Shown here: positions 661-63,696 of the stretch, in pieces
Position numbering within the stretch: position 1 is the first letter of the stretch
Layout: every line of letters starts with the position of its first letter
Virus record (IMG/VR): IMGVR_UViG_3300027901_000001
DNA length: 64,000 nt
Direction: 5' to 3' (one strand)
From: a virus
Translations under genes and position numbers: made by a program
Notes under the pieces: model-generated
The model's input: the letters and a program-made list of their open reading frames with translations, nothing else
The model's database searches: none
What the model was told of the DNA's origin: nothing

Positions 661-1656
661 TTATCCGGGATCACCTCGAATCCTTGGCCTCCAGGAGGAG
701 CCCTGAAGGGCAGGAGCGCCCCTTTCGTGGCACCACTGTATCCACTCCTCCGCCCGGCGAACGACCGTTTTCCAGGCCCCTACGGCTCCGCAACGGACGC
801 ATTTCACCTGACTGTCATCTTCGTGCCGACACTCACCCTCCTTACCGTGCTCCTCCAGTTTCATCCCGCGCAGCGCGCCGTATTTCTGCACCAACTTCAG
901 CTTGTAGGAGGCAATCTCCCACCTGGCCGCCAGAATCGGATCCACCACCCTGGCCGTCCGGTCCCCGGCCAACCAGCTCTCATCGTTTCCGCCCCGGCCG
1001 GATTCCAGTCCCTTTGAAGCGTACTTTGACGCCGCCACCACCGCTTTCTTCGAGCCCCTAGGGTCTTTACTTTTCACGCGCTGATCCTTCGGAGCCGGGT
1101 CACAATCCAGGGCCTGCACATCGCAGAATCCCACACGGCAGTCGACTGCCTTAGCGGCGCGCTCCAGCTTTGCCTTGGGAATCGCCGGACCGAAGTAAAT
1201 CAAATGCAGATGCACGTGGCCGCGTTTGGAGCATTCTATCGAACGCAGCATCGCCGCTCCGCGCTTCTTCAGCACCTTCTCCCATGTTTCACGTGAAACA
1301 CGCCCGGCCAGCAGCACACGCGACCGCAACGCCGTCGCCTCCAGGTCTTTCTCGTCTTCCGGGTCGTACTGGATCGTCACCGTCACGTTCTGCCAGTGAT
1401 AATTGTTATCACCCCCCAGCCGCTCAAACGCTTCCCCCATTAACTCGCTCACCCTGCGGGCGCGCACCCACGCGCACGCGGAGCAGCTCCGGCATTTACA
1501 CGTCCGCGTACCTTCAAAAGTCCCCGTGCCTTCCCTGTCCTTACCGCATTCCCCACAGCTCCGCACATACAACACCTGGCCGCACCGCATAAATTCTCCC
1601 ACCCGCTTCTCCTGGACACGCCTCTGGGCAACCGTATCCAGCTTGGCTAGCTCCAC
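661..1656 (-). CDS. HUH endonuclease, rolling-circle Rep-like (Rep_1/IS91-type Zn finger)
   Basis: Cys cluster CGECG...TCKCRSCSAC, motif I VTVT, HUH motif HVHLHLIY, Tyr motif KYASK; probable GTG start 1656 (ORF open to 1884). Confidence 0.7.
   Translation of the reverse strand: MELAKLDTVAQRRVQEKRVGEFMRCGQVLYVRSCGECGKDREGTGTFEGTRTCKCRSCSACAWVRARRVSELMGEAFERLGGDNNYHWQNVTVTIQYDPEDEKDLEATALRSRVLLAGRVSRETWEKVLKKRGAAMLRSIECSKRGHVHLHLIYFGPAIPKAKLERAAKAVDCRVGFCDVQALDCDPAPKDQRVKSKDPRGSKKAVVAASKYASKGLESGRGGNDESWLAGDRTARVVDPILAARWEIASYKLKLVQKYGALRGMKLEEHGKEGECRHEDDSQVKCVRCGAVGAWKTVVRRAEEWIQWCHERGAPALQGSSWRPRIRGDPG
1137..1150. repeat. 14-bp palindrome GGCAGTCGACTGCC, copy 1
   Basis: Perfect copy inside the Rep-like gene. 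Confidence 0.95.
1285..1300. promoter_or_regulatory. parS-like site TGTTTCACGTGAAACA
   Basis: Exact match to the widespread bacterial parS consensus. Confidence 0.75.
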
Positions 1657-2048
1657 TCGCCAGGCTCCCGCTACACCACGCCGATAGCCCCATTCCCCAC
1701 CGCTCCTCCGTTCGTGAAATCCCGTGTCATCCCACAGGGGTAGACATCTACCTCCTTCTTTATGAGCTGTCCGTTGATGCGCGCCGACGTACCTACCACC
1801 GCTCCGGACGCGCCGTTTTCGGCCGCCGTGAAGTGACAATACGTTGCAATAGCCGTCGCTATGGGGTAAATGGAGAGTGGCCACGGTCCCTGGCTATAAA
1901 TCGTGGCTTCCAGCCGGACGCCCTCGTCCCTTGCCGCGATGCCAACCACAACCTATATCCTTGGCACCGTGGGGCTGGTTCGCTAGCGCCCGGCCAGAAG
2001 GAATCTCCAGCTATAAGGGAGGGCCGACTTCGGATGCAAGCCTAAACG

Positions 2049-2360
2049 TCAGCCCCTCTTTCCATTTTCTATCCGGTCGAGCTTTTTGAACATCGCGTCG
2101 ATCCGGTTGGTGAGCGTGACGTAATCCCGTGTCCAGGTTTCACGGTCCACAAATTGCTTCATGGAATCACGTTCGGACTCAACAATCTTCCGATCAATCT
2201 CAGAAATTTTCTTGGCCAACTCTCCGATGCGGCCGTCTTGTTCCTCATTCTTTTTTTGGCTCGTAGCGATCACGACTCGAATCAGGTAACCGATCGTGGC
2301 CATTAAAATGGCGATAATCCCCCCGATTGCCGTGAGCATCCAAGCTGATATTTGCAGCAT
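2049..2360 (-). CDS. Single-TM coiled-coil protein (possibly holin-associated)
   Basis: N-terminal hydrophobic helix followed by a coiled coil. Confidence 0.5.
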   Translation of the reverse strand: MLQISAWMLTAIGGIIAILMATIGYLIRVVIATSQKKNEEQDGRIGELAKKISEIDRKIVESERDSMKQFVDRETWTRDYVTLTNRIDAMFKKLDRIENGKRG

Positions 2361-2378
2361 GTACGTTCCCAGTTAGCA

Positions 2379-2756: not shown

Positions 2757-2798
2757 GCTGAACCTACCCATATCATACCCGTCGCTACGGGGCGACCG

Positions 2799-3275: not shown

Positions 3276-3345
3276 CTCACAGCCTCAGTGCCCATAGTTG
3301 TACCCCAGCAGGTAGAGCTGGCCGTCGGGACCGTCTCGGGTGAAG

Positions 3346-8261: not shown

Positions 8262-8549
8262 ATGTCCGAAACGGCCCGAATCCTCCATACCTGGGGCAGC
8301 CAGGCTGTCATCGAGCGCACCTCCGATGACGGCAAGGTCCGCATCCAGGGTGCCTCCCTGGTCCGGGAAGGCCAACCCCTCAACGACATGGAGGAGGTCC
8401 TCCAGCTCTCCAGACGTGAAGACGACCCGCAGCGGTTCGATGTCACGGTGCTGCACAAGGGGCCTGCTCGGGCCGCCAGCCCGCGCTACCGGGAGAACCA
8501 CGAAGCCATCTTCGGGCAGACCAGGGCGGAGAAGCAGCTCCTAAATTGA
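8262..8549 (+). CDS. Hypothetical protein
   Basis: ORF ending SPRYRENHEAIFG. Confidence 0.55.
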   Translation: MSETARILHTWGSQAVIERTSDDGKVRIQGASLVREGQPLNDMEEVLQLSRREDDPQRFDVTVLHKGPARAASPRYRENHEAIFGQTRAEKQLLN

Positions 8550-8554
8550 CACCA

Positions 8555-8568
8555 GGCAGTCGACTGCC
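8555..8568. repeat. 14-bp palindrome, copy 2
   Basis: Perfect copy between a stop (8549) and the next start. Confidence 0.95.
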
Positions 8569-8581
8569 GGATACTCGGGTC

Positions 8582-8905
8582 ATGGAAAAGATGACCCCAG
8601 AATCCCTCCGCGACGCGATTCATCAGGTCGCTGGTGAAGCCAACGCCCCGCACACCCCCCCTCACCTGATACAGGAAAGGCAGGAACTGGATGAGGCTGT
8701 CCTCACAGCAAAAGACGTTCCCAAACTGCTAAAAAGCGCTGCTCTCTCCCACGCAGGAACCGCCGTAAAAGGCGTAATCGGACTACTGGGAACCCTGGAG
8801 AAATTCGACAAGAAACATCGTTTGGTATCGAAACAGGACTTCGACGCCATCCAGCAAGCCAGCTACAAGCTCGATAGCGTCTGGCGGAAACTTAAAAAGG
8901 CTTAG
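8582..8905 (+). CDS. Hypothetical helical protein, leader-like N-terminus
   Basis: ESLRDAIHQVAGEA...QELDEAV. Confidence 0.5.
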   Translation: MEKMTPESLRDAIHQVAGEANAPHTPPHLIQERQELDEAVLTAKDVPKLLKSAALSHAGTAVKGVIGLLGTLEKFDKKHRLVSKQDFDAIQQASYKLDSVWRKLKKA

Positions 8906-14502: not shown

Positions 14503-15189
14503 TCAGAACTGGATACTGATTTTCGGCTTCGACATCCGGGACCAGATTTCTACGCAGTCCTCTGTGATGTCAGCGCTCGAAAGCAAATCTCTGATCTTCT
14601 CCGGGACCTCTGCCCGCGTACACCGCAGCATCTGGCTCTCCTCGTTCACAGCCCCCGCCTTCTTGTAGACAATCAGGATAGGATCGTTGGGGTCTTCCAC
14701 CACCGTGGTGGCAGCGGGCTGTGCCGCCCCAGCCATCGCCGGTTGAGCCCCAACGCGCATCGTCCGCTGCTTCTCGATGGCCTCCACTTCCTTCAAGGTC
14801 TCCGCATCGGCGACCGCCGCCTCCGGATTGACCGCCGCCGGGGACTGCCATTCTCCGGACTGCATAAACCCCTCATACTCATCGGCCTCGACTACCGTGG
14901 TCAGCGTGCGCCTACCATGCACCGTCCGAATCAAGGCGTATAACATCTCGCCCTCGACCCAGCCGCTCAGGTCCACGATCCAGCCACCACCTGCCTTATC
15001 GCTGAACCGGGGCGCGTCTTTGGTTCCCCAGGCACGCTCAACGGCCCGGTGCAGGAGTAAACCCACGTCCTGGGGGCCACCGACGTTGCGCCCCTGCTGT
15101 GCCAAGTGCGTGTGCAGGTTGGCCGCCACCACCTCGGTGATCAGCACGTCGGACGGTGCGCCGCCCGCCAACTGGGTCTCGTCTGGCAC
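14503..15189 (-). CDS. Hypothetical protein
   Basis: GAAGGAG RBS, GTG start. Confidence 0.65.
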   Translation of the reverse strand: MPDETQLAGGAPSDVLITEVVAANLHTHLAQQGRNVGGPQDVGLLLHRAVERAWGTKDAPRFSDKAGGGWIVDLSGWVEGEMLYALIRTVHGRRTLTTVVEADEYEGFMQSGEWQSPAAVNPEAAVADAETLKEVEAIEKQRTMRVGAQPAMAGAAQPAATTVVEDPNDPILIVYKKAGAVNEESQMLRCTRAEVPEKIRDLLSSADITEDCVEIWSRMSKPKISIQF

Positions 15190-15368
15190 GTTCTCCTTCT
15201 CCTCTCTTTTGGGGGGCAGTCGACTGCCCCCTCCTTCCCCAACTTCACCTCAAGCTGGTGGATCCTTTGGTCTATCTTCCGCAGAATCCATGAAACCAAA
15301 GCGAGATACAATACCGCGATAACACTCCCGGCTGGCACCGTGAGCAATAGCCACTCTTGCAGGCTCAT
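15141..15368 (-). CDS. Small single-TM protein
   Basis: Hydrophobic N-terminus; ATG 7 nt after the -10. Confidence 0.5.
   Translation of the reverse strand: MSLQEWLLLTVPAGSVIAVLYLALVSWILRKIDQRIHQLEVKLGKEGAVDCPPKERRRRTCQTRPSWRAAHRPTC
15215..15228. repeat. 14-bp palindrome, copy 3
   Basis: Extends to a 20-bp perfect palindrome at 15212-15231. Confidence 0.95.
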
Positions 15369-16517: not shown

Positions 16518-17978
16518 CTACCCCTCCAACTCTCCTTCCAGAGCCAACCGCTTGAGCCTGGCACCGAGCCTACACAGGGCGTCGTGGTACTCCTCACTGA
16601 GATGGTCCGCGCTGTAGTGGTGGCCGAACTCATGGAGAAGCAGCCTGTCCACCACCTCCAGGTCCCCGTCCTTCACCTTGCGGAACCACTTTTTGCCCAA
16701 ACGCTTGACGCCAAACATCAGGCGACCATCTCTCCCGTAGCAGGCCGAGAAGCCGTTGAGGTCCTTGGCCATCTGGACATCAATGGTCTCGCCCAGCAGC
16801 AACCGCCCGAGCTTTTGGGCGTAGATTACGGTGGCCCGCATGTCGGCCGTCCACTTGTCCTCGGGAATCAGCTCGACCGGCGGCGCGTCCGGATCATCGG
16901 AGAACACCTTGGGACTGGGCGTTACCTGGCCCGCCGGTAGCGCCGCGCCCGACCGCCGGATATTGTCCCACTGAGTCCGGTTGAAGGACCCGGCCTGGAT
17001 GACCTGGTAGCCCTTGGCAACCGCCAGCTTGGTGCCCTCCGGATCGCTCGGATCGGCGATGACCCGCTTTTCCCCGTACCGGGCCGTGAGCACGGTGTCC
17101 ACCGCTTCGTCGGTGACGTTCTCGCTCTCCAGGGCCTCATCGACCCAGGGAGCCCTGGCGGTTTCCTCGCTCATGTATCCGTGCATCTCGTTGAGCACCA
17201 GCGTCAGGACCTCCCGCATATAGGCCGGGGTCACGTTGTCGCGGTCCGCGTTCAACGGCACCTTTTGGTTGATGTCGACGTGCCAGATACAGTCGATGTC
17301 CACGACCGGAATGCCCATCTCGTAGAGCCGCGCCGGTCCACCGTAGGTCCGGTTTGTCGTGTAGACCTTGACGATGGTGCTGCGCTTGGTGCGCCGGAGG
17401 AAGCCCTCTTCGTCCGCAATCTCGGTCGGCAACGTAGCCTGGAAGGTCCTGACCGGCTGCCACTTCGGTAACCGCTTGCCGTTGAACCAGAGCTTCACAC
17501 CTCGCGGCACGATGACCTCGCGCACCGCCTTTTCGATGCGCTTCACCTCATCATCCTTTAGACGCAGTTGTCCCTGGAAAAAGGACCCTCTCTGGGTCTT
17601 CCCACGGGTATGGGTTCGACCATTCTTATCGAAAAACACGGTACCCTTGGTGGTTGTGATCCTCGCCTCCTTGCAGACGGCGATGACCAACTTCTCACCC
17701 AGGTTGAATCGGCCCCGCTGGTTCGGGTTCTTGCCCTTGGCCGACTCCGCAAACAGCGTGTAGGCGTGCGCCAGGTCCTTGAAGCCCTCCGGGTTGTCGT
17801 CCTCGACCACCAGTTCGTGAAGGCTGTGACCGACGCCCAGCCGCCGGAGCGTCACCGCGACGCTGGTCGACTTCTCATCCAGGGCATTCTGGATCAGCTC
17901 CAGCACCACGAACTCGATACCGCGCCGAGCCAGAATCTTGGCCAGACCCTTCTTGTCCACTTCAAATGTTGGTTTCAT
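16518..17978 (-). CDS. GHKL (HSP90/MORC-like) ATPase with C-terminal HExxH domain
   Basis: ELIQNALDE, VEDDNPEG, GRFNLGEK; LLHEFGHH. Confidence 0.85.
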   Translation of the reverse strand: MKPTFEVDKKGLAKILARRGIEFVVLELIQNALDEKSTSVAVTLRRLGVGHSLHELVVEDDNPEGFKDLAHAYTLFAESAKGKNPNQRGRFNLGEKLVIAVCKEARITTTKGTVFFDKNGRTHTRGKTQRGSFFQGQLRLKDDEVKRIEKAVREVIVPRGVKLWFNGKRLPKWQPVRTFQATLPTEIADEEGFLRRTKRSTIVKVYTTNRTYGGPARLYEMGIPVVDIDCIWHVDINQKVPLNADRDNVTPAYMREVLTLVLNEMHGYMSEETARAPWVDEALESENVTDEAVDTVLTARYGEKRVIADPSDPEGTKLAVAKGYQVIQAGSFNRTQWDNIRRSGAALPAGQVTPSPKVFSDDPDAPPVELIPEDKWTADMRATVIYAQKLGRLLLGETIDVQMAKDLNGFSACYGRDGRLMFGVKRLGKKWFRKVKDGDLEVVDRLLLHEFGHHYSADHLSEEYHDALCRLGARLKRLALEGELEG

Positions 17979-24539: not shown

Positions 24540-24553
24540 GGCAGTCGACTGCC
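24540..24553. repeat. 14-bp palindrome, copy 4
   Basis: Directly after a TAA and before the next GGAGG RBS. Confidence 0.95.
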
Positions 24554-30748: not shown

Positions 30749-30762
30749 GGCAGTCGACTGCC
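30749..30762. repeat. 14-bp palindrome, copy 5
   Basis: Directly between a TGA and the next RBS on the minus strand. Confidence 0.95.
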
Positions 30763-32066: not shown

Positions 32067-32838
32067 ACAGGCCCTTTTCCAGGTTGAACTTCTTGATGAC
32101 CGCCCGCGCCTCCTGGTAAGTCTTCTCCGCGTTGAATATCCCACAGCCCCAACAGAAGCCCTCCCGGTCTAACAATTGCGGATGGCCGCCACAATCCTCA
32201 TACTCTAGGATGAGCAGGATGGCCTCCGATTGATTGAGCAGCTCATACCAGCCATCTGCGGCCCGTAGAGGCACCTCGTCGGCGTCCCTGGGCTCACAGG
32301 CACCACAGACCCCATCCTGGCGTCGGCCGCGCCACAAACGCCCCCTATAGGACCCCGGCAGCAGGTTGAAGTGCCGCTTACAGAACGGCAGTTCAGGATG
32401 GCAGTCGACTGCCTCACACCCCCTGGCATGGCAACGGTGAACTGGCCACGCCTGCGGAGCTTCGGCCTTCGCGGCCCTCCTCTCCGTTTTCAGCGGCGTC
32501 CCCGTTCTCCTGTACTGCCTCATCAAGCGAGCATGAGCGGCCTCAACCTTTGCCAAGGAGGTCCCCTCTATCTCGATCAAATTCGCCGCCAGCCACTTCC
32601 TTATCCTTCCCCCTATAACGGCACTCCAGGCGTTATGATGATGGGGCTCTCCTACAACAGACTGAATAGCGGTTCGGATATCCTCCCCCGTAAAAACTTC
32701 TCCTTCCGGGGTTTCACTAAACCAACCATCTATCTCAGCTTGCGCCGTATATTTCCACTCCCCGGCGTTCTCCGCGACACGCTCCATTCCCCTGTCGCGC
32801 AGCTCTTCTCCGTTCGTCCGATCATCATCATCACACAT
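32059..32838 (-). CDS. Two-domain Cys-rich hypothetical protein
   Basis: CHARGC..FCKRH; CWGCG. Confidence 0.65.
   Translation of the reverse strand: MCDDDDRTNGEELRDRGMERVAENAGEWKYTAQAEIDGWFSETPEGEVFTGEDIRTAIQSVVGEPHHHNAWSAVIGGRIRKWLAANLIEIEGTSLAKVEAAHARLMRQYRRTGTPLKTERRAAKAEAPQAWPVHRCHARGCEAVDCHPELPFCKRHFNLLPGSYRGRLWRGRRQDGVCGACEPRDADEVPLRAADGWYELLNQSEAILLILEYEDCGGHPQLLDREGFCWGCGIFNAEKTYQEARAVIKKFNLEKGLYA
32400..32413. repeat. 14-bp palindrome, copy 6
   Basis: Inside a CDS, read as AVDC. Confidence 0.95.
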
Positions 32839-43452: not shown

Positions 43453-44215
43453 AGCCCCACACCTTCTGCTTGGGGAAATCGGTCTTACGGCCCCGCAGCT
43501 TCTTCAGCTTGATGTGCCAGCACCAGGGATTCGTGTTCCAGGCGTAGCCCTCGTTGTAGTACGACCCATCCCAACCCGAGGCAAAGTGAGCACGGAACAG
43601 GTCGTCCTCAGTCCACTCTGGAAGGCGACGCCCCACGTAGGCAGTCGGGGGGTGCGCGCCGGTGAGCCGGATCATCGGCCTGAACCGGCCCTTCTCCCTC
43701 GCACCCATGACCCGGATACCGTCCAGCTTGATTTCCTCCAGGGTAATAGTCTGGAGCCGCCGTACCTCGATGACCTCGATCCGGAAGAGGATGCGCGAGG
43801 CCCAGCGCGGCATGTGGATGGACGGCCGCCAGGGACCGTTCACATACTCCACCTCTTGGTCCGCCCGGTATATTATCTCGTAGCCATCAGGACACTTCTT
43901 CGGAATTGGCTCCTTCCACAAATCCTCCCACTCCTCTCTAAGCCTGAGATTCCACGCCTCGCGCACGTACAGCCGGTCGCCAGGCACCCCGTGGGGACAG
44001 CGAACGACGCCTCCATCAAGGCAAGGGTAAGACGGCCCTCGGAACAAGCGGGCGGTCCCCGGCCCGTCCCGGCCTGGACACGCCACGTACTGGGTGTACG
44101 GGGGCGGCGGCTGCGGCCGGATCGGCCGCCACGTCGCCTTCTTGAGGCCCAGCAACGCGGCCCGCACCAGCTCGTCCCGAAGGAGAAGCTGGCGCTCTTT
44201 CACCTGATGTTTCAC
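43433..44215 (-). CDS. Conserved phage protein, ASCH-like
   Basis: CPHGVPGDRLYVRE, WRPSIHMPRWASRI, NPWCW. Confidence 0.8.
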   Translation of the reverse strand: MKHQVKERQLLLRDELVRAALLGLKKATWRPIRPQPPPPYTQYVACPGRDGPGTARLFRGPSYPCLDGGVVRCPHGVPGDRLYVREAWNLRLREEWEDLWKEPIPKKCPDGYEIIYRADQEVEYVNGPWRPSIHMPRWASRILFRIEVIEVRRLQTITLEEIKLDGIRVMGAREKGRFRPMIRLTGAHPPTAYVGRRLPEWTEDDLFRAHFASGWDGSYYNEGYAWNTNPWCWHIKLKKLRGRKTDFPKQKVWGFGSREE

Positions 44216-44223
44216 GTGAAACG
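44208..44223. promoter_or_regulatory. parS-like site TGTTTCACGTGAAACG
   Basis: 15/16 match to the consensus; at a gene junction, overlapping the GTG start of 43433-44215. Confidence 0.7.
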
Positions 44224-44224
44224 T

Positions 44225-44626
44225 CTACTTGGAGCTGGCCGCTGCGTCGCTGATGAGCTTGGCCGCCTTGTCCCTCAGCGCGCCGTCCCGCGAGAGCTTC
44301 CCTTCCAAGATGACCGTTAGAGTGCCCTTATCACCGAGATTGAGCGACATTTCCTCATGCTGCCCATTCACCATCGCGACAGGGGGCTTCTGCTGCGGCT
44401 TCTTGGGAGGCATCGTCCGTGGACGCTCTCTGAAGCCCAGGCCCAGCTCCCCTAATCGCTTCTCGACACCAGCCTTGGAGCGGCCAGCATTGAACTTCTT
44501 GTTGAACAGCCGCCTGATAGCAGCAACACGGAGACCCTTGTTGTGCAGCTTTTTAAGGTGCTCATCTTCGGCTTTGCGCCATCCATAGCGGCGCTTTTTC
44601 TTGCCGTTCGTCTTCTTCGTCGCCAT
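44225..44626 (-). CDS. Myb/GcrA-like HTH protein
   Basis: WRKAEDEHLKKL..RSKAGVEKRLGELGL. Confidence 0.6.
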   Translation of the reverse strand: MATKKTNGKKKRRYGWRKAEDEHLKKLHNKGLRVAAIRRLFNKKFNAGRSKAGVEKRLGELGLGFRERPRTMPPKKPQQKPPVAMVNGQHEEMSLNLGDKGTLTVILEGKLSRDGALRDKAAKLISDAAASSK

Positions 44627-44646
44627 CTTTATCTCCTCTCTCCTAG

Positions 44647-44841
44647 TCAGAGACTGAAGATGTCCGGGTCCGCCTCCCTGAACTCTCGTTCCGGCCCACC
44701 ACAGCCCAGACAGTGGCGCACCGAAGAAGGATTGACGGCCCCGCATCGGGAACAGCTCCAGCCCAGTTCCCCTTCTTCTTCACCTTCTCCGTTCAAAAGG
44801 CGGTCGACTGCATCCGCCGCGTGATTGAAATCGTCGCTCAT
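44647..44841 (-). CDS. RanBP2-type zinc ribbon protein
   Basis: WSCSRCGAVN..CLGCG. Confidence 0.6.
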   Translation of the reverse strand: MSDDFNHAADAVDRLLNGEGEEEGELGWSCSRCGAVNPSSVRHCLGCGGPEREFREADPDIFSL

Positions 44842-44848: not shown

Positions 44849-44877
44849 AATCTAATACGATGACAAGCGATAGTCAA
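44849..44877 (-). promoter_or_regulatory. sigma70-type promoter TTGACT-N17-TAGATT
   Basis: 20 bp identical to the promoter at 6613-6640; ATG 7 nt downstream. Confidence 0.75.
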
Positions 44878-45887
44878 GCCTCGCCGGGTATATCGAGCAC
44901 CAGCTTTTTCACCGGCACATCGCCTTTCCCCACCACCTGGTAATCCCGGATATGGCCAGCTTTGAGCGTCTGCACCAGATGGTTATCGTCGATAACGATC
45001 TTCCATACGTCCCGCGCCCGGCCACCGCCCAGCTCCCGGCTGATACCCACCGCCCGGTCCGGGTCGGTCGTCAAAAAGATATTGGTCGGCACCGTCCTGG
45101 CCCCCATGTACCGGCGGCGGTCCCTCACAGGGCGCGCCGTCCATAGGGTCAGTGGCCGCCCGCGCCGCTTGGTGGAACCTGGGCTCTTCAGCTCGCGCAC
45201 CAGGTCGAAATACTGGAGCTGCTCAACGGTGTCCTTGAAGAAATCCGGATCCCCGGCCTCCAGCACATCGTCTATTTCATCGACCTTGCCGTTCTTGGTG
45301 AACACGGTAAAGCCCGCGTCGCGCTTACCAACGGTCACGTAAAAAGATTCGGCAACGTCTTCTTTGGGCTCGCCGCTTGGCTTAATAACAACCGGAGGAT
45401 CCTGCCAAACGCGCATCCGGCGTGTGGCCGCCTGTATCTGAGCCAGCAGCTTCTGGGCATTCTTCTTGGTCCCATCAATGCGCTCTTTTGCCAGGCCGCT
45501 CAGCTCCTTTTTTATCTTCTCCGGCGTCTCCCCGCCCGCGACTTCCTCCCAACTCAGAATATCGCTCCGCAGCTTGAACAGCTCATCCCAGTTCTCCGGG
45601 GGTGCCTCCCCTTTAAGGGAAAGGTTGATGAGCGCCTTTAGTACCGCGTGGGCCGCATACACGTCACCCTTTTCCAGACGGTCGATGCTCTTGGACGGCC
45701 CCAAGTGTTTGCGCGCCCTGGCCGCCAACTTAGCCGGATCGTGTTTTGCGGCTCTCGCCTGCTCGATACGCCGAATAGAGCTGGCAATTAGGTCCTCTTC
45801 GTAATCCTTGGCCGCCTGCTCATACTTCTTCATGTCCACGGTGATGGACTCGACCAGCGCCGCGCTCAACTCCTCCGAGGGCCTCAT
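44874..45887 (-). CDS. Leader-family protein with possible C-terminal ADP-ribosyltransferase-like fold
   Basis: MRPSEELSAALVES; LTLWTAR..IFLTTDPDRA..RDYQV. Confidence 0.55.
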   Translation of the reverse strand: MRPSEELSAALVESITVDMKKYEQAAKDYEEDLIASSIRRIEQARAAKHDPAKLAARARKHLGPSKSIDRLEKGDVYAAHAVLKALINLSLKGEAPPENWDELFKLRSDILSWEEVAGGETPEKIKKELSGLAKERIDGTKKNAQKLLAQIQAATRRMRVWQDPPVVIKPSGEPKEDVAESFYVTVGKRDAGFTVFTKNGKVDEIDDVLEAGDPDFFKDTVEQLQYFDLVRELKSPGSTKRRGRPLTLWTARPVRDRRRYMGARTVPTNIFLTTDPDRAVGISRELGGGRARDVWKIVIDDNHLVQTLKAGHIRDYQVVGKGDVPVKKLVLDIPGEA

Positions 45888-46703: not shown

Positions 46704-47703
46704 ATCGGGAACTTGACCGGCCGCCGAAGCCACATCCACAGGCGCATCCACCAGGTGTTACGGCGCTCCGCCGCCTTCTCCTCCAGCGAGAGTGTCCGCA
46801 GCCTGAACGTCAAGAGGGAAGGCCCAAATTCGTTCCCCTCAACATGGAATTCGGTAAGCCGATACTCCTCTCCCATGAATTGAAAACCCTGTCCCACCGG
46901 CCTGTCGACCAGCTTTATTTTCGTCCCACGACCAAATTGAAAATGCACAACTCCTCCTTAGTGCTCGTCTATCTTCTGATACCGCACCCTGATGGTGCCC
47001 TCGATGGAACTCTCCCTACCAGTGGGAGACGGAGAGTTCCAAACCACTTCCGTCACCACGACTCTAGGGCCACCTGCTCTAACCATGACAGGCTCGACGG
47101 GCCTCTTGCCGTTGAGAGGGGGAAGGGGAAAGGCCAGCGATCGAAGAAAGTCCATCAAGTCAAAAGCCGGGTCCTCGACCAGTTTCCGGTAGTCGATAGC
47201 CACTACACTCCCTCCGTCTTGATCGCCGACGCCGCCATGCCCAGTGCCACCAGCAAGTCCGGATGCCGCGCCTCCAGATACACCGGCTCCGCTTCCACTC
47301 GTACTACCCAGACGAAGGGAGGGTCTTCCGCCGCCTGAGCCGCAGCTATCCAGTTGCGTTCCGCCGAAACGGTCGCCAGGCCGCCCAGCGTCTCGTCCGC
47401 CTGGACGCAAAGGGCCTCCAGCTCGGTCCGTGCCCGGACGCGCTTCTGGCCTTCCCTGGTCTCCTCAGTCAGCTTGCCCAGGCCGCCGTCAGGAGGAGAC
47501 GGTAAGACGGTGCTCCCTTCCAACAATATCACAATCTCGCTCTGCCTCAGCGGACACCACTCCGGAACATCCTCCGGAAGCGGAAACACCAGCTCCTTGT
47601 TCGTCGCCCAACACACGCTCCGCTCGTCCTTCATTATCACAATTTTGTGATGGAACGGACACGGGGCCAGGCAGCTCTTTATCTTCTTGAATCTCGGTCT
47701 CAT
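46691..47703 (-). other. Three hypothetical ORFs (46691-46948, 46958-47203, 47203-47703)
   Basis: Coupled ORFs with RBSs. Confidence 0.55.
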
Positions 47704-47711: not shown

Positions 47712-48281
47712 CTAGGCAGTCGACTGCCCTTTGAAAATCTCCAGCGGCGTCTTGTACGGCCGCATCAGTGGATGGAAGGGATCACCCTCCTTGGTAATGC
47801 CCAGGCACTCCGGCTCGCGATTCTGAAACTGAACGAGCGCCAGCACATCCCGCTTGCGCCTGGCAGCCCGGCGACGCCCGGCCCCGCCCCAGGCCACCAC
47901 CACCTTGCCAACGTTCTCCTGCTTCAGCACCTCCATGATGTACCGATCGTTGGTCGGCCCGATGGGTCTAACGTCGCGGCCCCAGAGGTCGCCCGGCTTG
48001 GTAGTGCGGAAGGCATACAGGTTCACCACCTCGATGCCACCGTACTCCCAGAGCGCCGCGAAGCCCATACACTTGCGGATGGTTGGGTCGTCCTCGGTGG
48101 CGTCGGCCGTGCTCGGGTTGAGCATAATCCATAACACGCGCTTGTCCTGGTGAGCTGGCGGAAAATGCCTGAGCGGAAACAATGAACGGCCTTCCCGAAT
48201 GCCGAACTCGCGCCACAGCCGGTAACGGTACTTGCCGTCATCGCTGATCACCGCGCCCGCATCTGCGACTATTGGCTTCAC
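47712..48281 (-). CDS. DUF1643 family protein
   Basis: YRYRLWR, IMLNPSTADA..DDPTIRKC, VVNLYA, VVAWG, HPL. Confidence 0.9.
   Translation of the reverse strand: MKPIVADAGAVISDDGKYRYRLWREFGIREGRSLFPLRHFPPAHQDKRVLWIMLNPSTADATEDDPTIRKCMGFAALWEYGGIEVVNLYAFRTTKPGDLWGRDVRPIGPTNDRYIMEVLKQENVGKVVVAWGGAGRRRAARRKRDVLALVQFQNREPECLGITKEGDPFHPLMRPYKTPLEIFKGQSTA
47715..47728. repeat. 14-bp palindrome, copy 7
   Basis: Forms the last codons (QSTA) of the DUF1643 gene. Confidence 0.95.
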
Positions 48282-49740: not shown

Positions 49741-50671
49741 AATCGGCTCCTTTCTCCTTCCACTGCTGCCTAGCGGCCAGAGAACGATCCTCCAACCGCC
49801 TCACCTTCAGATACGCTAACAAAACCACACGCGCCTTGTTCACGCGGTCAAACTCTTCTTTTGCAGCCTCCGTAGGATTCCTATCCGGATGCAGCTCCGC
49901 CGCCCGCTTATTAGCTTTCCTCACCACAAACCTCTCGTCCGGAGGCTTTTTGAATACAAACCTTATCCCCAAAACTTCACAGGCCCACCTGGCATCGGCA
50001 ACGGTAATCGCCAACGCCTCTTCCATGTCCGCCCGCCGCTTTCCCTCTCGAATCCCATTAATAAGATCACTGATACAAAAACCAAGACCAACCTTGAATC
50101 GCCGGACAACCTCGTCCTTCACACTCCCATTGATGGCGTAGCCCTCACAAATTCTTTCCACAAAACCTTCAGCATTTTCCATCACCTGCGCCTTGAATAA
50201 ACGTGCGTCCGCGTCACCCTTTTTTTCTTCCTTCGCGTCTTTTTTTGTCTCCTCTGGCGCTTCTACGACTTCTTCTGGACCCGTTTCTCCCCGTAAACAT
50301 TGACTAACAACAAGTTCTAACGCCTTGGCAGTAGAAATCTTTTCTTTCCGAGAAAGTGCCAATATCTTTTTCCGTAACGAAATTGCCTTTCTAAGCGTAA
50401 CGGTCCCCTCATCGACCAGTCTAAACAGAACCTCCCCCCACCCACCTGTATTCAACAATATAGACCTACTTTGATAATGCGAAACCTTCCCCCCGAGAGT
50501 TTTACAAAGCCAGTCCCTTTTATAGATCCGCTTTCCATTTTCTTTTCCGCCCAGCATCGACCATAGGCCGTACATCTTGCCCTCAGCCTTGGCCAATTCG
50601 CGCTGGGACATTGACCCTTGCCCCTGCTTATAGCTATCAATCAGCTTAGCCAACTTTTCCTGTGCCGTCAT
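49724..50671 (-). CDS. ParB-HTH-like N-terminus fused to a C-terminal J-domain
   Basis: SQRELAKA..LCKTLGGKVSHYQSRSILL..LFRLVDEGTVTLRKAISL; ACEVLG..ELHPDRN..EEFDRVNKA. Confidence 0.65.
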   Translation of the reverse strand: MTAQEKLAKLIDSYKQGQGSMSQRELAKAEGKMYGLWSMLGGKENGKRIYKRDWLCKTLGGKVSHYQSRSILLNTGGWGEVLFRLVDEGTVTLRKAISLRKKILALSRKEKISTAKALELVVSQCLRGETGPEEVVEAPEETKKDAKEEKKGDADARLFKAQVMENAEGFVERICEGYAINGSVKDEVVRRFKVGLGFCISDLINGIREGKRRADMEEALAITVADARWACEVLGIRFVFKKPPDERFVVRKANKRAAELHPDRNPTEAAKEEFDRVNKARVVLLAYLKVRRLEDRSLAARQQWKEKGADYASEG

Positions 50672-51662
50672 CTCCGCCCTCTACTTCCGTGTACCCAGCC
50701 GCCTGCAAAAGCCGGTTAACCACCTTCCCACCAGATCCCTTCGACTCAGCCCCTTCTTCTCCATCCACTACTATGCTGCTCAACTTCTCCAGCCTGCCCA
50801 TCCCATCATTCATCAACTCCATATTCGCCTTCAGCTCCCGGATCAGCGGCCCCAGCGCAATGACCTTTAACAGCTTTTTCACAAGCCCCCCAACAAACAG
50901 AAGCTCGCCCCCCAGCTTTCTCATAAGGGACCGTGACTCTTCATCAAGAGTTATGTCCTGCTCCCGCTCCAGCTTTAACTCGTTTAATCCTTCCTCTATT
51001 TTTTGCAGCCGCCTACCGTAATCATCCTTGATCGTGCTCCAACGACCGTCCTCCTTCTCAAAACGAAGGTTCAACCGTTCCTTCAGCAAATCCATCCCTA
51101 AACAAAGTTCATTTTGTGTCTCCAACATCATACGCGCCCACTCATAATCCGGCGCTAAAGAACCGGTTGGGCCACCTTCATCCTCATCCTCGTATCTCTT
51201 CTCCTTCTCTCTTTCTTCCTCTCTTTTTTCTACCGAATCCTCCGACTTAACAATTGTTGAAGCCTCCTCCATAACGAACTGAAGAATATCGTCTGGCATC
51301 CGTGTTCCCTTGCTATTGGGAAATAAAAACCAAAGAAGCTCGTTTCCTCCATTAATGTCTTCTTGGTTAATAATTTTCTTCACATAGTCCAGCCACTGAA
51401 TGCCATAAAAAAGCTGGCCGTCTATGGTCGTAGTATAGAGAACACCATGCTCCACCATCCGGTGCAGATATTCTTTTTGCCAACGACTGTTTTTGAAGAG
51501 CCTGGTAACGACAACCCGGTCCACCGGCTCGGGCGGCTCAACGAATAATTCGCTCCTGGTTAAAATACCTCCCTCTCCTTCTTCAAAAAGCCGGATGAGT
51601 CCGTGCAAAGCGAATTTAGCTCGGGCGTCCTCTACGCTCTCCTTGCTGACCTTCGCCACCAC
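50646..51662 (-). CDS. Hypothetical coiled-coil protein
   Basis: GGAGG RBS, GTG start. Confidence 0.65.
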   Translation of the reverse strand: MVAKVSKESVEDARAKFALHGLIRLFEEGEGGILTRSELFVEPPEPVDRVVVTRLFKNSRWQKEYLHRMVEHGVLYTTTIDGQLFYGIQWLDYVKKIINQEDINGGNELLWFLFPNSKGTRMPDDILQFVMEEASTIVKSEDSVEKREEEREKEKRYEDEDEGGPTGSLAPDYEWARMMLETQNELCLGMDLLKERLNLRFEKEDGRWSTIKDDYGRRLQKIEEGLNELKLEREQDITLDEESRSLMRKLGGELLFVGGLVKKLLKVIALGPLIRELKANMELMNDGMGRLEKLSSIVVDGEEGAESKGSGGKVVNRLLQAAGYTEVEGGDDGTGKVG

Positions 51663-51670: not shown

Positions 51671-51684
51671 GGCAGTCGACTGCC
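51671..51684. repeat. 14-bp palindrome, copy 8
   Basis: Abuts the RBS of 50646-51662, downstream of a TTGACA promoter near 51750. Confidence 0.95.
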
Positions 51685-57016: not shown

Positions 57017-58027
57017 CTACTTTTCCGGTGCGGCAGCCGGAACGGAGGGAACCGCCTTGAGCGTAAAAACGAGACCTATAAACTTCTCGTTCTTGCGCGC
57101 TCGGACCAGCCTATCCACCTCTACCTTCGCCGCCTCGAACATCTTGCTCACACCGACACGAATTCGATCCAGGCTCACCTCTTCCAGATTCATATCTGGA
57201 TATGCCGAAGGCGGAATAAGAATATGGCCGCCGTCGTACCTTCCGGCCACAATCTTCCCAATCAAATCCGGTGTGAAACGCGGTAATTCCTCCAAATCCA
57301 CCATCGGCACATCCGACTGCCTATCAAACGGCTTTTGGCTGACCTCCCCAGCCTCCGGGCTGTAGACGCCAACCGTTTCCTGGGGCTCCTGGACACTGGA
57401 ATCAGCCTGTTTGGACGGGCTCTCCTCTTCAACCTGAGCCTCGAAAATCTCCGCGCACTGAACACATGGTATGCAACTGTCAGGCAGCTCCTCACCGACG
57501 GAGAAAATCGCACCTTCCGCACCACATAACGAGGTTACGCCATCCCTGGTTTGGTGCACGGTGACGCCCGCGAACGCCTGCTCCACGGCCGCGTCGTTCT
57601 CCGCCGGGCCGGGCTTAGGATCGACCACATCATCAACGGTCACCTCCGTCGCCGTGTCCTGTTGGGCAGTCGACTGCCCCTTGCGCACCTTCAAAGCAAT
57701 CAAACGGCTTTTGAGCCGCTGTTCCTCTGCCAGGGCCTCCTCATCGGAAAGCTGCTCGACGGGCTTTACAACCGGATTCTCGGCCAGCCGCTGAGCTATT
57801 TGCTGCTCGGCCAGCATTTCGACCTGGCGCTGGGCGATGAACTCGTCCCGCGCCTGCTGGCACGCGGGCTTGTCGCAGTACCAGGCCATCTTGCCGCCGC
57901 CCGCATCAACGCCCTTCCAGCCCGCCTGGTCGCCCCGGCCGATCACCTTCAGGTGGCAGCCCTCGCACTCCCGAATCTCATCTGGAACCTTATGTCTCGG
58001 ATACAAGTCGTCCGGTACTATTGCCAT
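57017..58027 (-). CDS. Hypothetical protein with Cys motifs and acidic linker
   Basis: CEGC..YCDKPAC; CIPCVQC; start after a GAAGGAG RBS. Confidence 0.6.
   Translation of the reverse strand: MAIVPDDLYPRHKVPDEIRECEGCHLKVIGRGDQAGWKGVDAGGGKMAWYCDKPACQQARDEFIAQRQVEMLAEQQIAQRLAENPVVKPVEQLSDEEALAEEQRLKSRLIALKVRKGQSTAQQDTATEVTVDDVVDPKPGPAENDAAVEQAFAGVTVHQTRDGVTSLCGAEGAIFSVGEELPDSCIPCVQCAEIFEAQVEEESPSKQADSSVQEPQETVGVYSPEAGEVSQKPFDRQSDVPMVDLEELPRFTPDLIGKIVAGRYDGGHILIPPSAYPDMNLEEVSLDRIRVGVSKMFEAAKVEVDRLVRARKNEKFIGLVFTLKAVPSVPAAAPEK
57665..57678. repeat. 14-bp palindrome, copy 9
   Basis: Inside a CDS, read as GQSTA. Confidence 0.95.
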
Positions 58028-58239
58028 CTCCTTCTCCTTTCGCTCCTCCCTCAAAACGGCCCAGCGCTTGGTGCTGACCCGCCGGAATTCCACCCTTACT
58101 ATACTCCCGTCCTTGACCACTTCGGCTATCCAAATGTCACCGGTACCGATCGGCGGTAGCATTTTCTTGATGGCCCCGCCGCCATCGTACCGGCTCCGCA
58201 AAAATCCTCGCGCCCAGTTCCACTCAATGGACTCGCCCA

Positions 58240-59522
58240 CTAGAGCATCGTAGCAGCCGCGTAACCCCAGGCGTATCCAAGAATCATTCCGATCGCCAGC
58301 GCCAGCGCCACCACGGTGGCCCCGAACTGGAGAGCCTCGCCATCGTCGATGTCAGTATCGCGGTCGTAGATTTCATCCGCGCACTTCTCGCAGAGGATGT
58401 CCCCCTTCGGGTCCGTGCAGTAGCAGCAATCAGCCATGAAGCGCCTCTCTTCCTTCTCTGGTCAGGCTATACATCCACACCCCGTCCTTGGGCCTGGCCA
58501 AGACAAATCCCCTCCGACACAGCTTGTTCAGGTAGGAGCCGCCCTGCCGGATAATCCCCGCGCCGGTCGTAGATCCCTTGGGGCCACATTTGGAATGCCG
58601 CCTCCAGGAGGGACTATCAGGCCACATCTTATGAGCAAACCATCCAGCCATCATCGGGCCGTCGGCCCTCTCCAGAATCTCCAGCGCCCGGCGCTGGGCC
58701 GTGGTGAGCTTCACAGTCACCGCCCCCTCCTAGCGCTCACCCGGTGCGGTATCGGTACCGAAGTAATCGCAGTCTCCCGAATCTCGCGGTCAGGCGGCGG
58801 CTGCGGCTTCTGCGGCGGTGGCGGTCTTGGCCGCTCGTCTATCTGGTAGTCCTGGTTTACGCCGCCCTTTTTGACCTTACCCTCCCGCAACCTGCTCTTG
58901 ATGATCGTCTGCTCCAGTTGATGCTGACAACCGGTACACGTCACCTGGGCCTGATCTGTGGTCCCGTGCGCGGAAAGCGCGCCACATAACGGCCGCGTAT
59001 GCTTCCCCGCCGCGTCCATAAAGTGCATCGGCGAGCGCACGGCATGGGATTCCAGCCAGCGTACCAGCCCCTGCATCTTGGAATCGGCGACGTAGAACTC
59101 GTCCCAATTGTTGACCGTTATTGTCCCCATTCACCCGTCTCCAGTATGCGCTTCACCGCCCCCATCCAACATAAGTCCTTCTTCGGACGATACAAGAAGC
59201 ACTCCGGACATCCTCCCAAACCGTGCTCCAGGAGGTGTTGATAGCAGGCGTCCCGCAGCTCCTTGATCATCTCGACCATCAGGAAATAGACAATCTCTTT
59301 GTTCCCGGCGACCTGGCCATAAGCTCCAAGGTGTCGAAGCGCGTCGACCGTCATCCATAAATCCGACACTTCGACAAAATTGACAAAGTGCTCGTCCGCC
59401 TCCTCTTCTTCCGCTAGGAATTTGGTGTAGCTGCTGATGACATCAATCACCTGCTTGCGACGCTTCAGCGGCAAAAAGGCCCATCGAGAGCACGGGTCAT
59501 TGGCTTTGAATCGGGCGGTCAT
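58240..59522 (-). other. Four hypothetical ORFs (58240-58437, 58430-58720 wHTH-like, 58717-59130, 59118-59522)
   Basis: Coupled ORFs. Confidence 0.55.
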
Positions 59523-60909: not shown

Positions 60910-60938
60910 AAAGTAATACGGTCAGAAGGCTTTGTCAA
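60910..60938 (-). promoter_or_regulatory. sigma70-type promoter TTGACA-N17-TACTTT
   Basis: Spacer CTGACCGTAT is shared with the promoter at 7955-7983. Confidence 0.7.
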
Positions 60939-61344
60939 TCCGGGGCCGCCGGGCTCTCTGCACCCGGTTTAGTCGATCAATTTCGGCCGCAATAAGAGCC
61001 CCGGCCTTCACCAGCAGGTCCAGGCGTTCCTCGTAGGTGTAGGTCGCCGGATCCGCCGGGTCACCGATCGGAACACCGGCTGGATGCGGATCCTCACGGT
61101 CCTCTCCGTAGAACCTTCGTTTGTCCCACTTCATTTCCCAGCTCTCCGGCCACGGGTCCTCAAAGGTAACCGTTGTCCCGCAAGCGATCTTGAAAAGCCT
61201 GACCGGCGTGGCGTAGCAGACGGCCGCCAGCGCCAACGAGCCGTCCGTGTGCTCGTCATCGTGTTCGGCGTCCCAGCCTTCCCCTTCAATCTGCCTTTTC
61301 CGCTCTCTTGCGATCAGCTCTGCCCCTGTCATCGCCGCCTCCAT
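60922..61344 (-). CDS. Conserved phage protein
   Basis: IARERKRQIEGEGWDAEHDD..LVKAGALIAAEIDRL. Confidence 0.75.
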   Translation of the reverse strand: MEAAMTGAELIARERKRQIEGEGWDAEHDDEHTDGSLALAAVCYATPVRLFKIACGTTVTFEDPWPESWEMKWDKRRFYGEDREDPHPAGVPIGDPADPATYTYEERLDLLVKAGALIAAEIDRLNRVQRARRPRIDKAF

Positions 61345-61506
61345 TCTCCTTCACTAGATTCTTCATAGAGGGCAGTATTTCAGCCCATTCCGCAAGTGCT
61401 GTCGCCGCTTTTCGCGCTGAAACACCCAAACGCGCAAACGCCCGCATTCCCCGGTTCACCTGCACCTTGAATTTGAACCTCCGGAACCGCCTGTCCCAGT
61501 CGTCCA

Positions 61507-62797
61507 TCAATCGCCCTTCTTCTTCAGCTCTCGGATCAGCCCACGCATGATCCTGATGGCATCTTGCAAAACAGTCGGAGGCACGGGCACGGTGGCCGTC
61601 TTGCGGCTCGCCCACTTCGTGCCCGTCAACCACCGAAGGAAATCCTCCGCCTGCTTTATCCAGTTGGGGTCCTCATCCTCCCAGGACTCCAGCTTCACAC
61701 GCCGGTCCAGGTCCGCCAGGTCCACGGTCACCGCACCCTCCGGATACAACGCAAACTCGTACAGCTCCTTGCCATCCGATATCAGCAAGAACGTGGCGCG
61801 CTTGCCGTCCACCAGGACACGCTCACCGAGCTGGAGCGCCTTCGCCACTTTCGAGGCCCTGTATGTCTGCGCCCACCCCATCAGCGGTTCATCGCAGCGA
61901 TGCCACGCACGATGTCGGACAGCTTGTACGGCCTGGTCAGCCGCAGCTCGCCCGGATTGCACACGCGCTCCAACTCCTCCACCCTGGCGCGCACGATGTC
62001 CAGGGCCTCCGCATCATTGCGACCCTCGCCCTTCACGGCCAGGTCGCCCTTGGTGAGCAGCCAGAAGGTGAAGCCCTGGTCGTCCAGCCGATAGTCGCTG
62101 TGCACGGCCACGGTCCAGCCCATGAACCGCAGATCGCTCGGATCGCCGCGCTGGGCCACGTCGATTTCAACGCGGTCCTTGTCCATCTGCGCACACATGG
62201 CGTTGGCAAACCAGCCGACCATCAGGTCCGGGTCGATCTGCTCCAGCGTCCAGCGGTTCTTCTTTTTGAGCCGCTCGAATTCCGCTGCCCAGACCGTAGC
62301 GTCGGTCGTTTCGAGCAGGTTCACGTCGTCTCCCGTGGCCGGTTCCGGCTCCGCGACCTCGCGCACCGCCACCTCCGGCTGGCACGGCGAGATATCGTTT
62401 TCGACCTCGATACCGGAGTGCCGGATGGCACGCTCCAGATCGGCAAATCCGACATCGCCGGTATCCTTATGGTGCAGGTGCTCCCACACCCTGATTACCT
62501 CTGACAGCTTCAGCTTCGTCATGGCCCCTCCTTCTGCGCCGCCGGTACATCGTGCTTGCCGCACACCCGGCAGATGTTGGTCTTGTCGCGGCCCATAATG
62601 TCTCTGAAATAGGTCTCCGGATGGTCGCACACCGCCTGAATCGCCTCCGTTAGCTTCTTGTTGTAGGCCAGCTTCAGGTCCAGCAGCCGCCGCTCCTCTC
62701 GCAAGGCCCGCATCTGGGCCTCAATCTCCTCCCTGGTGGTCGGCATCTCGGGCATCATCCACCCCCGGCCTGGTTCTTGTAGGGAAACGCCGGACAC
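61507..62797 (-). other. Hypothetical ORFs (61507-61881, 61881-62522, 62519-62797)
   Basis: Coupled ORFs; 61881-62522 appears to be a fusion of several modules. Confidence 0.55.
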
Positions 62798-63696
62798 TCG
62801 TACTGCCCCTTTTCGGCAGTCCGAAGACGGCAGTCGTCTGCCGCCTCCAACGCCTGTTGGAGTCTGTTTTCGAGCTTTCCGTGGGCTACCGCTACTCTAT
62901 CGAAAGCCGTGTTTACCGTGAACAACTCGGCCCGCGCCTGCTCCAGCTCGATTTCGAGCCGCTCGACCTTCCTGTCCTTGGACCGTAGCTCGACCGCCTC
63001 GTCAAAGCTCCAGTCGGCGATCAGCTCGCGCAGTTCCTCCAGTTCCTCATGGGTGGTAGTGAGCTGGTCGCCTTCGACCCTTACGTGCTCGTGCCACCAG
63101 GCCCGGATGGCCTCCCGCTTGTCAAACTCGGCATGGTAGGCCCGCTCCATCTTGTCGCGTTCCTGCGTCACCGCATCCATCGTCTGCTGCGAATAACCGG
63201 TCCCAGCATCGTCCAGTTTCTTCAATCGCGCTAGAGCCTCTTCTCGTTCCAGCTCCGCCTGCCGCGCCAGGTCGTTCTGCTGGGCCAGCACCTTGGCGTT
63301 GGCGGCGAGATCCGCCCGCGCCTTTTCAAGATCACGCCTGGGCTTACAGTGAAGATGCCCATCATTATCGCAAATCGCATCCTTACAACGAGCGCACATC
63401 TCCGTATTGAAGGCCCGCGCTTCCTTGAACAGGCGCAGTATCCGCTCCAGCTCCCTTTCCAGAGGGTAGGGGGCGCTATCATCGTCCGGCCGCCGCCTAA
63501 AGCTCAACACCGACAGCGCCTTGTCGAGCTGCTCCGGCAGGCTCATCCAGACGCCCAGCGTCGCCATCATCCGGTAGACGGTGTTCTGCGGCAGCGGCCC
63601 TTGCAGCTCCGCCTTCAGCAGGTCCTCGACCTCCTCCGGGGTCATCGGCCCTCGCGGATCACCTATCATCACCACCTTCTTTCCCACCCAAAACAA
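62755..63696 (-). CDS. Long coiled-coil protein
   Basis: Extended heptads; CARC..C..C motif. Confidence 0.6.
   Translation of the reverse strand: MFWVGKKVVMIGDPRGPMTPEEVEDLLKAELQGPLPQNTVYRMMATLGVWMSLPEQLDKALSVLSFRRRPDDDSAPYPLERELERILRLFKEARAFNTEMCARCKDAICDNDGHLHCKPRRDLEKARADLAANAKVLAQQNDLARQAELEREEALARLKKLDDAGTGYSQQTMDAVTQERDKMERAYHAEFDKREAIRAWWHEHVRVEGDQLTTTHEELEELRELIADWSFDEAVELRSKDRKVERLEIELEQARAELFTVNTAFDRVAVAHGKLENRLQQALEAADDCRLRTAEKGQYECPAFPYKNQAGGG

Follow-up and report, generated by a model that had tools for sequence, protein, structure and literature searches.

A dispersed, evenly spaced palindrome with lineage-specific spelling in a 192-kb myovirus genome, and an HUH Rep-family protein as its candidate reader

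The DNA analyzed here is a stretch of 64,000 nucleotides, hereafter the window, from the virus record IMGVR_UViG_3300027901_000001. It corresponds to the minus strand of positions 64098-128097 in a virus record (G000) that is complete at 191,623 bp and has a terminal overlap of 94 bp. The phage is a myovirus, encoding a tail sheath, a baseplate wedge, a portal, a prohead protease and a major head protein, as well as a DnaB-like helicase, a primase and a UvsX-like recombinase for replication and recombination; nearly all of its genes lie on one strand. Two features of the window are considered: a perfect 14-bp palindrome, GGCAGTCGACTGCC, which is dispersed as a lattice along the genome, and a gene predicted to encode an HUH Rep-family endonuclease (Rep), in which one copy of the palindrome is located. 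The HUH Rep identity of this gene product and its tie to the palindrome lattice are new here.

A pattern search of the window found nine perfect copies and two variants (Table 1), exactly those listed in an earlier note on this DNA. These 11 matches at two mismatches or fewer compare with 0.47 expected, and a maximum of 3, in dinucleotide-preserving shuffles. Over the whole genome, there were 20 perfect copies, 4 copies with one mismatch and 2 with two, giving a total of 26. The next most frequent 14-mer palindrome was canonical parS, with five copies, and all of the others were found once; an equal frequency of similar palindromes, which would have counted against the note's proposal, was therefore not observed.

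Table 1. Positions in the window of the palindrome copies and of the gene encoding their candidate reader (RBS, ribosome-binding site; ORF, open reading frame; gene strands in brackets)
Feature	Position	Strand	Context
HUH Rep-family endonuclease (predicted), 407 aa, two zinc ribbons	661..1884	-	candidate reader/nickase of the palindromes
Perfect copy	1137..1150		inside the HUH Rep-family gene, codons K-A-V-D-C-R, 74 nt past the HUH motif
Perfect copy	8555..8568		gene junction: after the stop of 8262-8549 (+), in the first codons of called ORF 8546-8905 (+)
Perfect copy	15215..15228		intergenic, 25 nt upstream of gene 14503-15189 (-)
Perfect copy	24540..24553		intergenic, 14 nt upstream of gene 24568-25047 (+)
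Perfect copy	30749..30762		precisely at the junction of the 30763-31185 (-) stop with the 30184-30738 (-) RBS
Perfect copy	32400..32413		within called ORF 32059-32838 (-), read as AVDC
Two-mismatch variant	44799..44812		intergenic, between 44874-45887 (-) and 44225-44746 (-)
Perfect copy	47715..47728		covers the final codons of 47712-48281 (-), 11 nt upstream of 47203-47703 (-)
Perfect copy	51671..51684		8 nt upstream of 50646-51662 (-), divergent intergenic region
Perfect copy	57665..57678		within gene 57017-58240 (-), read as QSTA
One-mismatch variant GGCAGTCGTCTGCC	62829..62842		within 62755-63696 (-), 74 nt before the end of the gene

Along the whole genome, there was about one copy per 8-10 kb. 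As the note had remarked, this spacing is quasi-regular: the coefficient of variation of the gaps was 0.52, where random placement gave 0.93, with P = 0.0012 when the 20 perfect copies were considered and P = 0.0003 when all 26 were. Of the 20 perfect copies, 11 were located outside gene interiors, a class that comprises 25% of positions (P = 0.004), and several lay precisely at the junction of a stop codon with the following ribosome-binding site. All three frames were used by the nine perfect copies found in gene interiors, as well as by the 12 copies that gene calls placed within an ORF (GSRLP, QSTA and AVDC). The use of all three frames, together with the enrichment at gene boundaries, indicates that the constraint acts on the DNA. 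This agrees with the DNA-level selection proposed in the note, whose stop-to-RBS placements, AVDC and QSTA readings and symmetric site were also recovered. The flanks showed no conservation, except that A was favored at -1 and T at +1 (22 of 40 half-sites). As single-stranded DNA, the motif can form a 5-bp stem with a 4-nt loop (-3.4 kcal/mol). A Chi-like reading was rejected, since separate oriented 7-mers would suffice for it and the 7-mers alone were barely enriched (27 and 34 copies), as was, by inspection, a sigma-54-like reading of GGCA...TGC, in which the GG-to-GC spacing is one base short.

True relatives of the phage were found through the major head protein. Their common theme was GGCA-N6-TGCC, with the centers GTCGAT, GACGAC, ATTGAT and CCCGGG observed beside that of G000. 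In G007 (81 kb, head protein 84% identical), there were 13 such sites versus 2.8 expected, most of them one or two changes away from the G000 motif; the orthologous places at genome positions 95685, 126948 and 147610 were occupied, as was 162450, with a 3-bp central insertion. G011 (148 kb, 77% complete, head protein 67% identical) contained 11 evenly spaced copies of GGCAATTGATTGCC (P = 0.006), with seven of those at gene boundaries and about five at or beside G000 positions. The G011 sites are asymmetric, were found at a ratio of 8:3 in the two orientations within one transcription direction, and are widened to about 24 bp by symmetric flanks.

Among the other relatives, L342 had a perfect copy at the orthologue of genome position 147610. 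Two contigs from one sample, L343 and L344, were treated as one phage (R1); in each of its seven sites, the two half-sites differed at position 5, one having G and the other A, with four of the sites corresponding to the asymmetric GGCAGTCGATTGCC, in either orientation, and three exhibiting one or two further base differences. One perfect copy was found in L345, and GGCAGACGACTGCC was present twice in L346. The window site at 32400 was occupied in L345 (perfect copy), L346 (GGCAGACGACTGCC), and L344 and G007 (GGCAGACGATTGCC), and the junction at 30749 was occupied in L344 (GGCAGTCGATTGCC) and L346 (GGCAGACGACTGCC), with no copy in L345 or G007. The Hainich 191-kb phage (L362/L372) carried RGCACCCGGGTGCY, with four perfect copies in 21 kb versus 0.011 expected. 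No such lattice was found in G008 and G009, which are complete genomes, or in G010. The sites are thus conserved at the same places in relatives under variant spellings, in keeping with what the note had expected of orthologous loci, and this conservation spans 50-67% protein identity. Taken together, these comparisons indicate that the sites are old and hold their positions, and that their spelling drifts together within each genome around a fixed GGCA...TGCC frame.

Some side observations were made during these comparisons. The two halves of the called 259-aa ORF at 32059-32838 (minus strand) matched two different PHROG families, and relatives aligned only to the half downstream of palindrome 32400; this ORF may represent two genes, or a fusion joined at the palindrome. 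Two of the lattice-free genomes had over-represented palindromes of other sequence, namely TGGCCCNNGGGCCA, five times in the 82 kb of G010 (IMGVR_UViG_3300033072_001141), and TGTACTNAGTACA, four times in the 186 kb of G008 (IMGVR_UViG_3300002461_000812). The GHKL-type ATPase gene (window 16518-17978, minus strand), which has a conserved C-terminal HEFGHH...DH motif and more than 2,500 homologues in large phage contigs, was rejected as a marker of kinship, as it is widely shared across otherwise unrelated large phage contigs: the genomes of the 94 loci returned by a search with it shared only 3-7 of 249 proteins with the phage and had no lattice. This gene looks as though it has been widely exchanged. 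A metagenome scan with window 27480-28613 gave no match.

The many copies that follow a stop codon and precede the ribosome-binding site of the next gene, and the 5-bp stem and tetraloop that can form, might suggest an RNA element, i.e., a small hairpin in polycistronic mRNA serving in processing, stability or termination. An intrinsic terminator or known RNA family was rejected, as no T-run followed the copies and an Rfam search of the window returned no family match. Moreover, changes in variant copies were uncompensated, the loop is itself palindromic, and nine copies were found deep within genes. The asymmetric G011 and R1 spellings occurred in both orientations relative to transcription, which points to DNA rather than RNA as the functional form. 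We consider a role in RNA to be most improbable.

The note had also considered that a host chromosomal motif might be mimicked, in which case the sites would recruit or titrate a host protein. Canonical parS (TGTTTCACGTGAAACA or one mismatch) was found five times in the genome (positions 50277, 83875, 126798, 140581 and 165445), and the presence of this host-type site makes such borrowing plausible. Two of the parS copies are in the window, at 1285-1300 and 44208-44223, the first of them within rep, at a distance of 150 bp from the palindrome at 1137. There was no parS in G007 or G011 and zero to one copy in each of G008-G010, and L342 keeps the 140581 copy. A search for a full ParB in the genome found only two sub-threshold ParB_N fragments, in a 116-aa ORF (L042:8863-9213, minus strand) and at the N-terminus of an MT-A70 methyltransferase; with no full ParB encoded, host ParB would have to read the parS copies. 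The MT-A70 adenine methyltransferase itself (L042:15116-16348; genome 155116-156348) is common to G011 and not to G008-G010. The palindrome is not parS: it differs from TGTTNCACGTGAAACA, which occurs separately five times, and no ParB with helix-turn-helix (HTH) and CTPase domains was found. The parS/matS-like membership suggested in the note was therefore not retained.

As for a host source of the palindrome itself, a search for the exact 14-mer in 2.9 million viral contigs (IMG/VR) returned no other contig with more than one copy. In 185,579 species genomes, the matches listed were singletons, apart from one unrelated repeat in the Bacteriovoracales metagenome-assembled genome JAPONP01 (L245, L246, L281, L290, L307, L318 and L321). 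There, the 14-mer belonged to a more extended repeat whose flanks were identical and which was found several times at contig ends, with no protein similarity to the phage; this repeat is probably the end of an insertion element. Thus, among the matches listed for species genomes and in the viral contigs, no source with multiple dispersed copies was identified, a weak negative for mimicry of a host motif. In addition, the change of spelling among close relatives is too rapid for a site read by a host factor, and we regard host mimicry as very unlikely.

Within the phage, the gene at 661-1884 is of particular interest. Its product matched Pfam families Rep_1 (26.5 bits, below the cut-off of 33.2) and REP_ORF2-G2P only weakly; however, motif I (VTVT), the HUH motif (GHVHLH) and the YxxK motif (KYASKG) are conserved, and H225, Y288 and K291 were invariant across 13 homologues. 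A sequence search against the Protein Data Bank (PDB) gave no match. The AlphaFold (AF2) model of Rep (mean predicted local distance difference test score, pLDDT, 79.7) was best matched by the Rep protein ORF119 of SIRV1 (Z 7.6, root-mean-square deviation 3.7, 114 residues aligned), although Z below 8 is common for a ferredoxin-like arrangement. Many HUH nucleases were present among the top 50 fold matches, and Z ranged from 4.2 to 5.4 for the Rep proteins of adeno-associated virus 5 (AAV5), Vientovirus and geminivirus, NS1 of minute virus of mice (MVM), Helitron, RAYT (REP-associated tyrosine transposase; REP, repetitive extragenic palindrome) and RepB. Judged by its sequence, the gene encodes an HUH Rep-family endonuclease, with which the predicted fold is in moderate agreement.

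To locate further Rep genes, an alignment of Rep was searched against viral and metagenome contigs. This returned 25 loci, some of them repeating genomes already in hand, and a total of 17 distinct homologues covered the HUH region. A site of the GGCA-N6-TGCC family was found inside rep in 13 of these 17, in four placements that together use all three frames; each relative that bears a lattice had such an internal copy. Relative to the HUH motif, the placements were +74/+95 nt in frame 2 (AVDC); +84 nt in frame 0; +138/+144 nt in frame 0 (GNxLP); and -44 nt in frame 1 (KHPGAG). The copy at the codons of window position 1137 was also present in G007, L354, L356 and L357, with a one-mismatch copy there in L352/L353, and other rep lineages had their own spelling at other positions and frames. 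The spelling inside rep was that of the genome itself, with the center GTCGAC in G000, ATCAAT in G011 and ACCGGT in L359, and with RGCACCCGGGTGCY in L362/L366/L372 (Hainich 191-kb phage). From the lattice density, a site would fall inside rep by chance with a probability of about 0.1-0.2 per genome; for three to four independent placements, P is about 0.003 or less, and chance alone is an unlikely explanation. A cognate palindrome close to or inside rep, as is expected of the double-strand origin (dso) of a rolling-circle replicon, was thus present in 13 of the 17 homologues. The origin of phiX174 lies within gene A, and that of pT181 within repC.

The presence of a lattice also varied with the Rep allele. 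Uniform lattices were observed only with the GHVH allele, which retains the first histidine of this motif (G000, G011 and the Hainich phage/L362 type), whereas genomes with the GMVH allele had heterogeneous sites only (G007 group, L355) or none (G008, G010/L348, G013); G009 had neither rep nor lattice. A uniform lattice was present in three of three cases with GHVH versus zero of four with GMVH or no rep (Fisher P = 0.029, uncorrected for phylogeny).

Our leading explanation, put forward tentatively, is that the palindromes are DNA recognition sites kept by selection, and that they are read, most likely, by the phage's own HUH Rep (661-1884), for which they would be docking or nicking sites. 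HUH initiators nick at hairpin-like origins (PMC5714925). Rep would bind each site as a duplex, or as the identical hairpin with a 5-bp stem and a 4-nt loop that either strand can form, and would then nick at the site in the manner of rolling-circle initiators at hairpin origins. This would provide about 20-26 entry points, one per 8-10 kb and on either strand, at which DNA synthesis could be begun or resumed by proteins of the phage, namely its DnaB-like helicase, primase, polymerase and UvsX-like recombinase; the even spacing would follow from selection to cover the whole chromosome. In its most specific form, which we consider rather doubtful, this explanation makes the sites some 20-26 evenly spaced, identical mini-origins or nick sites for the HUH initiator of a large myovirus of T4-like scale, with initiator and sites co-evolving and each lineage thereby having its own spelling. 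If so, the spelling could serve as a mark of self and non-self in co-infection. The action of Rep on the sites is a candidate role that we infer from the non-random tie between rep and a selected, evenly spaced and co-evolving site family.

Several observations weigh against a role for Rep. A perfect palindrome of 14 bp is short for cruciform extrusion, and the hairpin is weak; the perfect dyad, which extends through the central TCGA or CCGG, suits an ordinary dimeric binder of duplex DNA equally well. Rep homologues were also found in the lattice-free G008, G010/L348 and G013, the allele correlation comes from few, non-independent genomes, and L360 and L361 have GHVH but no internal site, on contigs shorter than 4 kb. 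The fold matches are middling, with the best Z at 7.6 and a Foldseek E of only 0.018, to a Helitron. Finally, a conserved site also adjoins the gene of a different enzyme, a PD-(D/E)XK nuclease.

With regard to the dyad, the sites might instead be docking sites of a symmetric, dimeric, duplex-binding protein of phage or host, acting as a global regulator, a roadblock, or the loader of a sliding or organizing protein, following the logic of KorB O_B, SlmA or Noc; the copy inside rep would then be merely one position of the lattice. The dyad symmetry is perfect through the center, half-site centers are 10 bp apart, and the widening of the G011 site to about 24 bp by symmetric flanks, the symmetric changes between G000 and G011 (G-to-A and C-to-T) and the even spacing are all consistent with such a protein. 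Corndog-type repeats have been interpreted in this way (PMC4351075). However, the four placements inside rep are left unexplained, all seven R1 sites are asymmetric in the same manner, which is unexpected for a homodimer, and no candidate was found: no full ParB is encoded, and the HTH-like proteins of the window do not match the distribution of the lattice. Of four candidate binders proposed in the note, the Rep-like protein fits and the other three do not, as the DnaJ-like and winged-HTH-like genes had no homologue in any relative, and the HTH_31-like gene was found in lattice-free relatives and not in G011 (77% complete). Profiling for genes present in G000, G007 and G011 and absent from G008-G010 returned a single candidate, a 147-aa ORF (genome 169868-170311) for which Pfam and Atlas gave no lead. 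A dimeric binder is possible in our view, though doubtful.

The PD-(D/E)XK nuclease gene (genome 147634-148464; L042:7634-8464) provides a further candidate. Its product, MmcB-like by Atlas features, has invariant D38, E56 and K58 and a long C-terminal coiled coil; its sequence gave no match in the PDB, but its fold matched 3dnx (E 1.7e-7) and restriction enzymes. A dimer of this protein might cut or nick the palindromes, generating ends for recombination-dependent replication, or form a restriction-like pair with a methyltransferase. Consistent with this, a palindrome is located 10 nt upstream of the gene in G000, L342 and L343, and DNA methyltransferase genes come after it in L342 and in the P0125 contig. 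The gene was present in G000, G011, L342 and L343, and absent from the syntenic spot of G007 and from G008, G009 and G010; nevertheless, this phyletic signal amounts to a single loss, in G007. The G011 homologue, the only one found by an alignment search of IMG/VR, has no adjoining site, and restriction targets are normally avoided in a genome, rather than enriched and evenly spaced. MmcB-family proteins are not known to be sequence-specific. Targeting of the palindromes by this nuclease seems unlikely.

Among known systems, the stoperators of Cluster A mycobacteriophages share several traits with the lattice, in that a 13-14-bp site is present in more than 20 copies, often in short stop-to-start gaps. 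Stoperators, however, lack symmetry, follow the direction of transcription and serve as targets for the immunity repressor of a temperate phage, and stoperator-type sites were rejected here, since the G000 site is palindromic and the asymmetric G011 version occurs 8:3 within one transcription direction. Dispersed short palindromes that dock one dimeric protein are also known from KorB and O_B of plasmid RK2, ParB and parS, SlmA and its binding sites (SBS), Noc and its binding sites (NBS), and MatP and matS. These arrays are regional or operator-linked, and not evenly spaced as the phage lattice is; no ParB, KorB, SlmA, Noc or MatP homologues were found in the phage.

The closest published pairing of palindromes with an HUH protein is that of REPs with RAYTs (TnpA-REP; PMC3333891, PMC3479197, PMC8266576), in which short dispersed palindromes co-vary in spelling with the protein lineage. 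The sites could accordingly be selfish mini-elements spread by an HUH protein, with no benefit to the phage. An HUH enzyme does occur together with dispersed palindromes that are uniform within a genome and divergent between genomes, like REP-RAYT pairs (PMC3333891, PMC8266576), and the junction at 30749 is occupied in three of the related genomes and empty in L345. On the other hand, the spacing is over-dispersed, neither random nor clustered, positions are kept across 50-67% protein identity, and half of the copies are in frame within genes, whose reading would be shifted by the insertion of 14 bp. REPs are 20-40 nt long, extragenic, tagged with GTAG or CGTC and present in hundreds of copies, and RAYTs are Y1 proteins of about 150 aa whose genes are flanked by REPs (PMC3333891, PMC3479197, PMC8266576). 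In contrast, the phage sites are 14 bp long, untagged and limited to 20-26 copies, with 9 of the 20 perfect ones in gene interiors, and the rep-associated site is within, not beside, a gene encoding a 407-aa Rep_1-like enzyme rather than a Y1 transposase. Membership in the REP/RAYT family was rejected for these reasons, and a selfish spread of this kind is quite unlikely.

Returning to Rep as the candidate reader, rolling-circle double-strand origins and their HUH initiators, such as phiX174 protein A and the Reps of pC194/pMV158-type plasmids (PMC5714925), share with the phage system motif I, the HUH motif and the catalytic Tyr, as well as a palindromic, hairpin-forming cognate site inside or beside rep. 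Those replicons differ in being only a few kb long and having a single origin (PMC5714925), compared with 20-26 copies on the 192-kb genome of a myovirus. This phage, moreover, encodes a DnaB-like helicase, a primase and a UvsX-like recombinase of its own. Should Rep indeed act on the lattice, the phage would offer the first case of a rolling-circle initiator working at many sites of a large phage chromosome, and a new answer to how large phage genomes start or restart replication. If it does not, the sites and their spelling variants provide a ready specificity series for finding the true binder.

For the array itself, the closest published parallel is the 17-bp repeat of Cluster O mycobacteriophages (Corndog, TGTTCGGNNNCCGAACA; PMC4351075), an inverted repeat of unvarying sequence that recurs more than 30 times across the phage genome, both between and inside genes, at positions kept among relatives; it is absent from host genomes, and its function is unexplained. 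The Corndog repeat has another sequence and arm spacing, belongs to Mycobacterium siphoviruses and is about five times denser, with no even spacing or HUH link reported and an invariant spelling among the five genomes described (PMC4351075). Given the differences in sequence and arm spacing, the palindrome was not assigned to the Cluster O repeat family, and the likeness is one of kind only. Dispersed phage palindromes have thus been described (Corndog, 2015) but never explained, and to such arrays the present one adds even spacing, observed independently in two genomes, positional conservation, and a concerted change of spelling around GGCA...TGCC.

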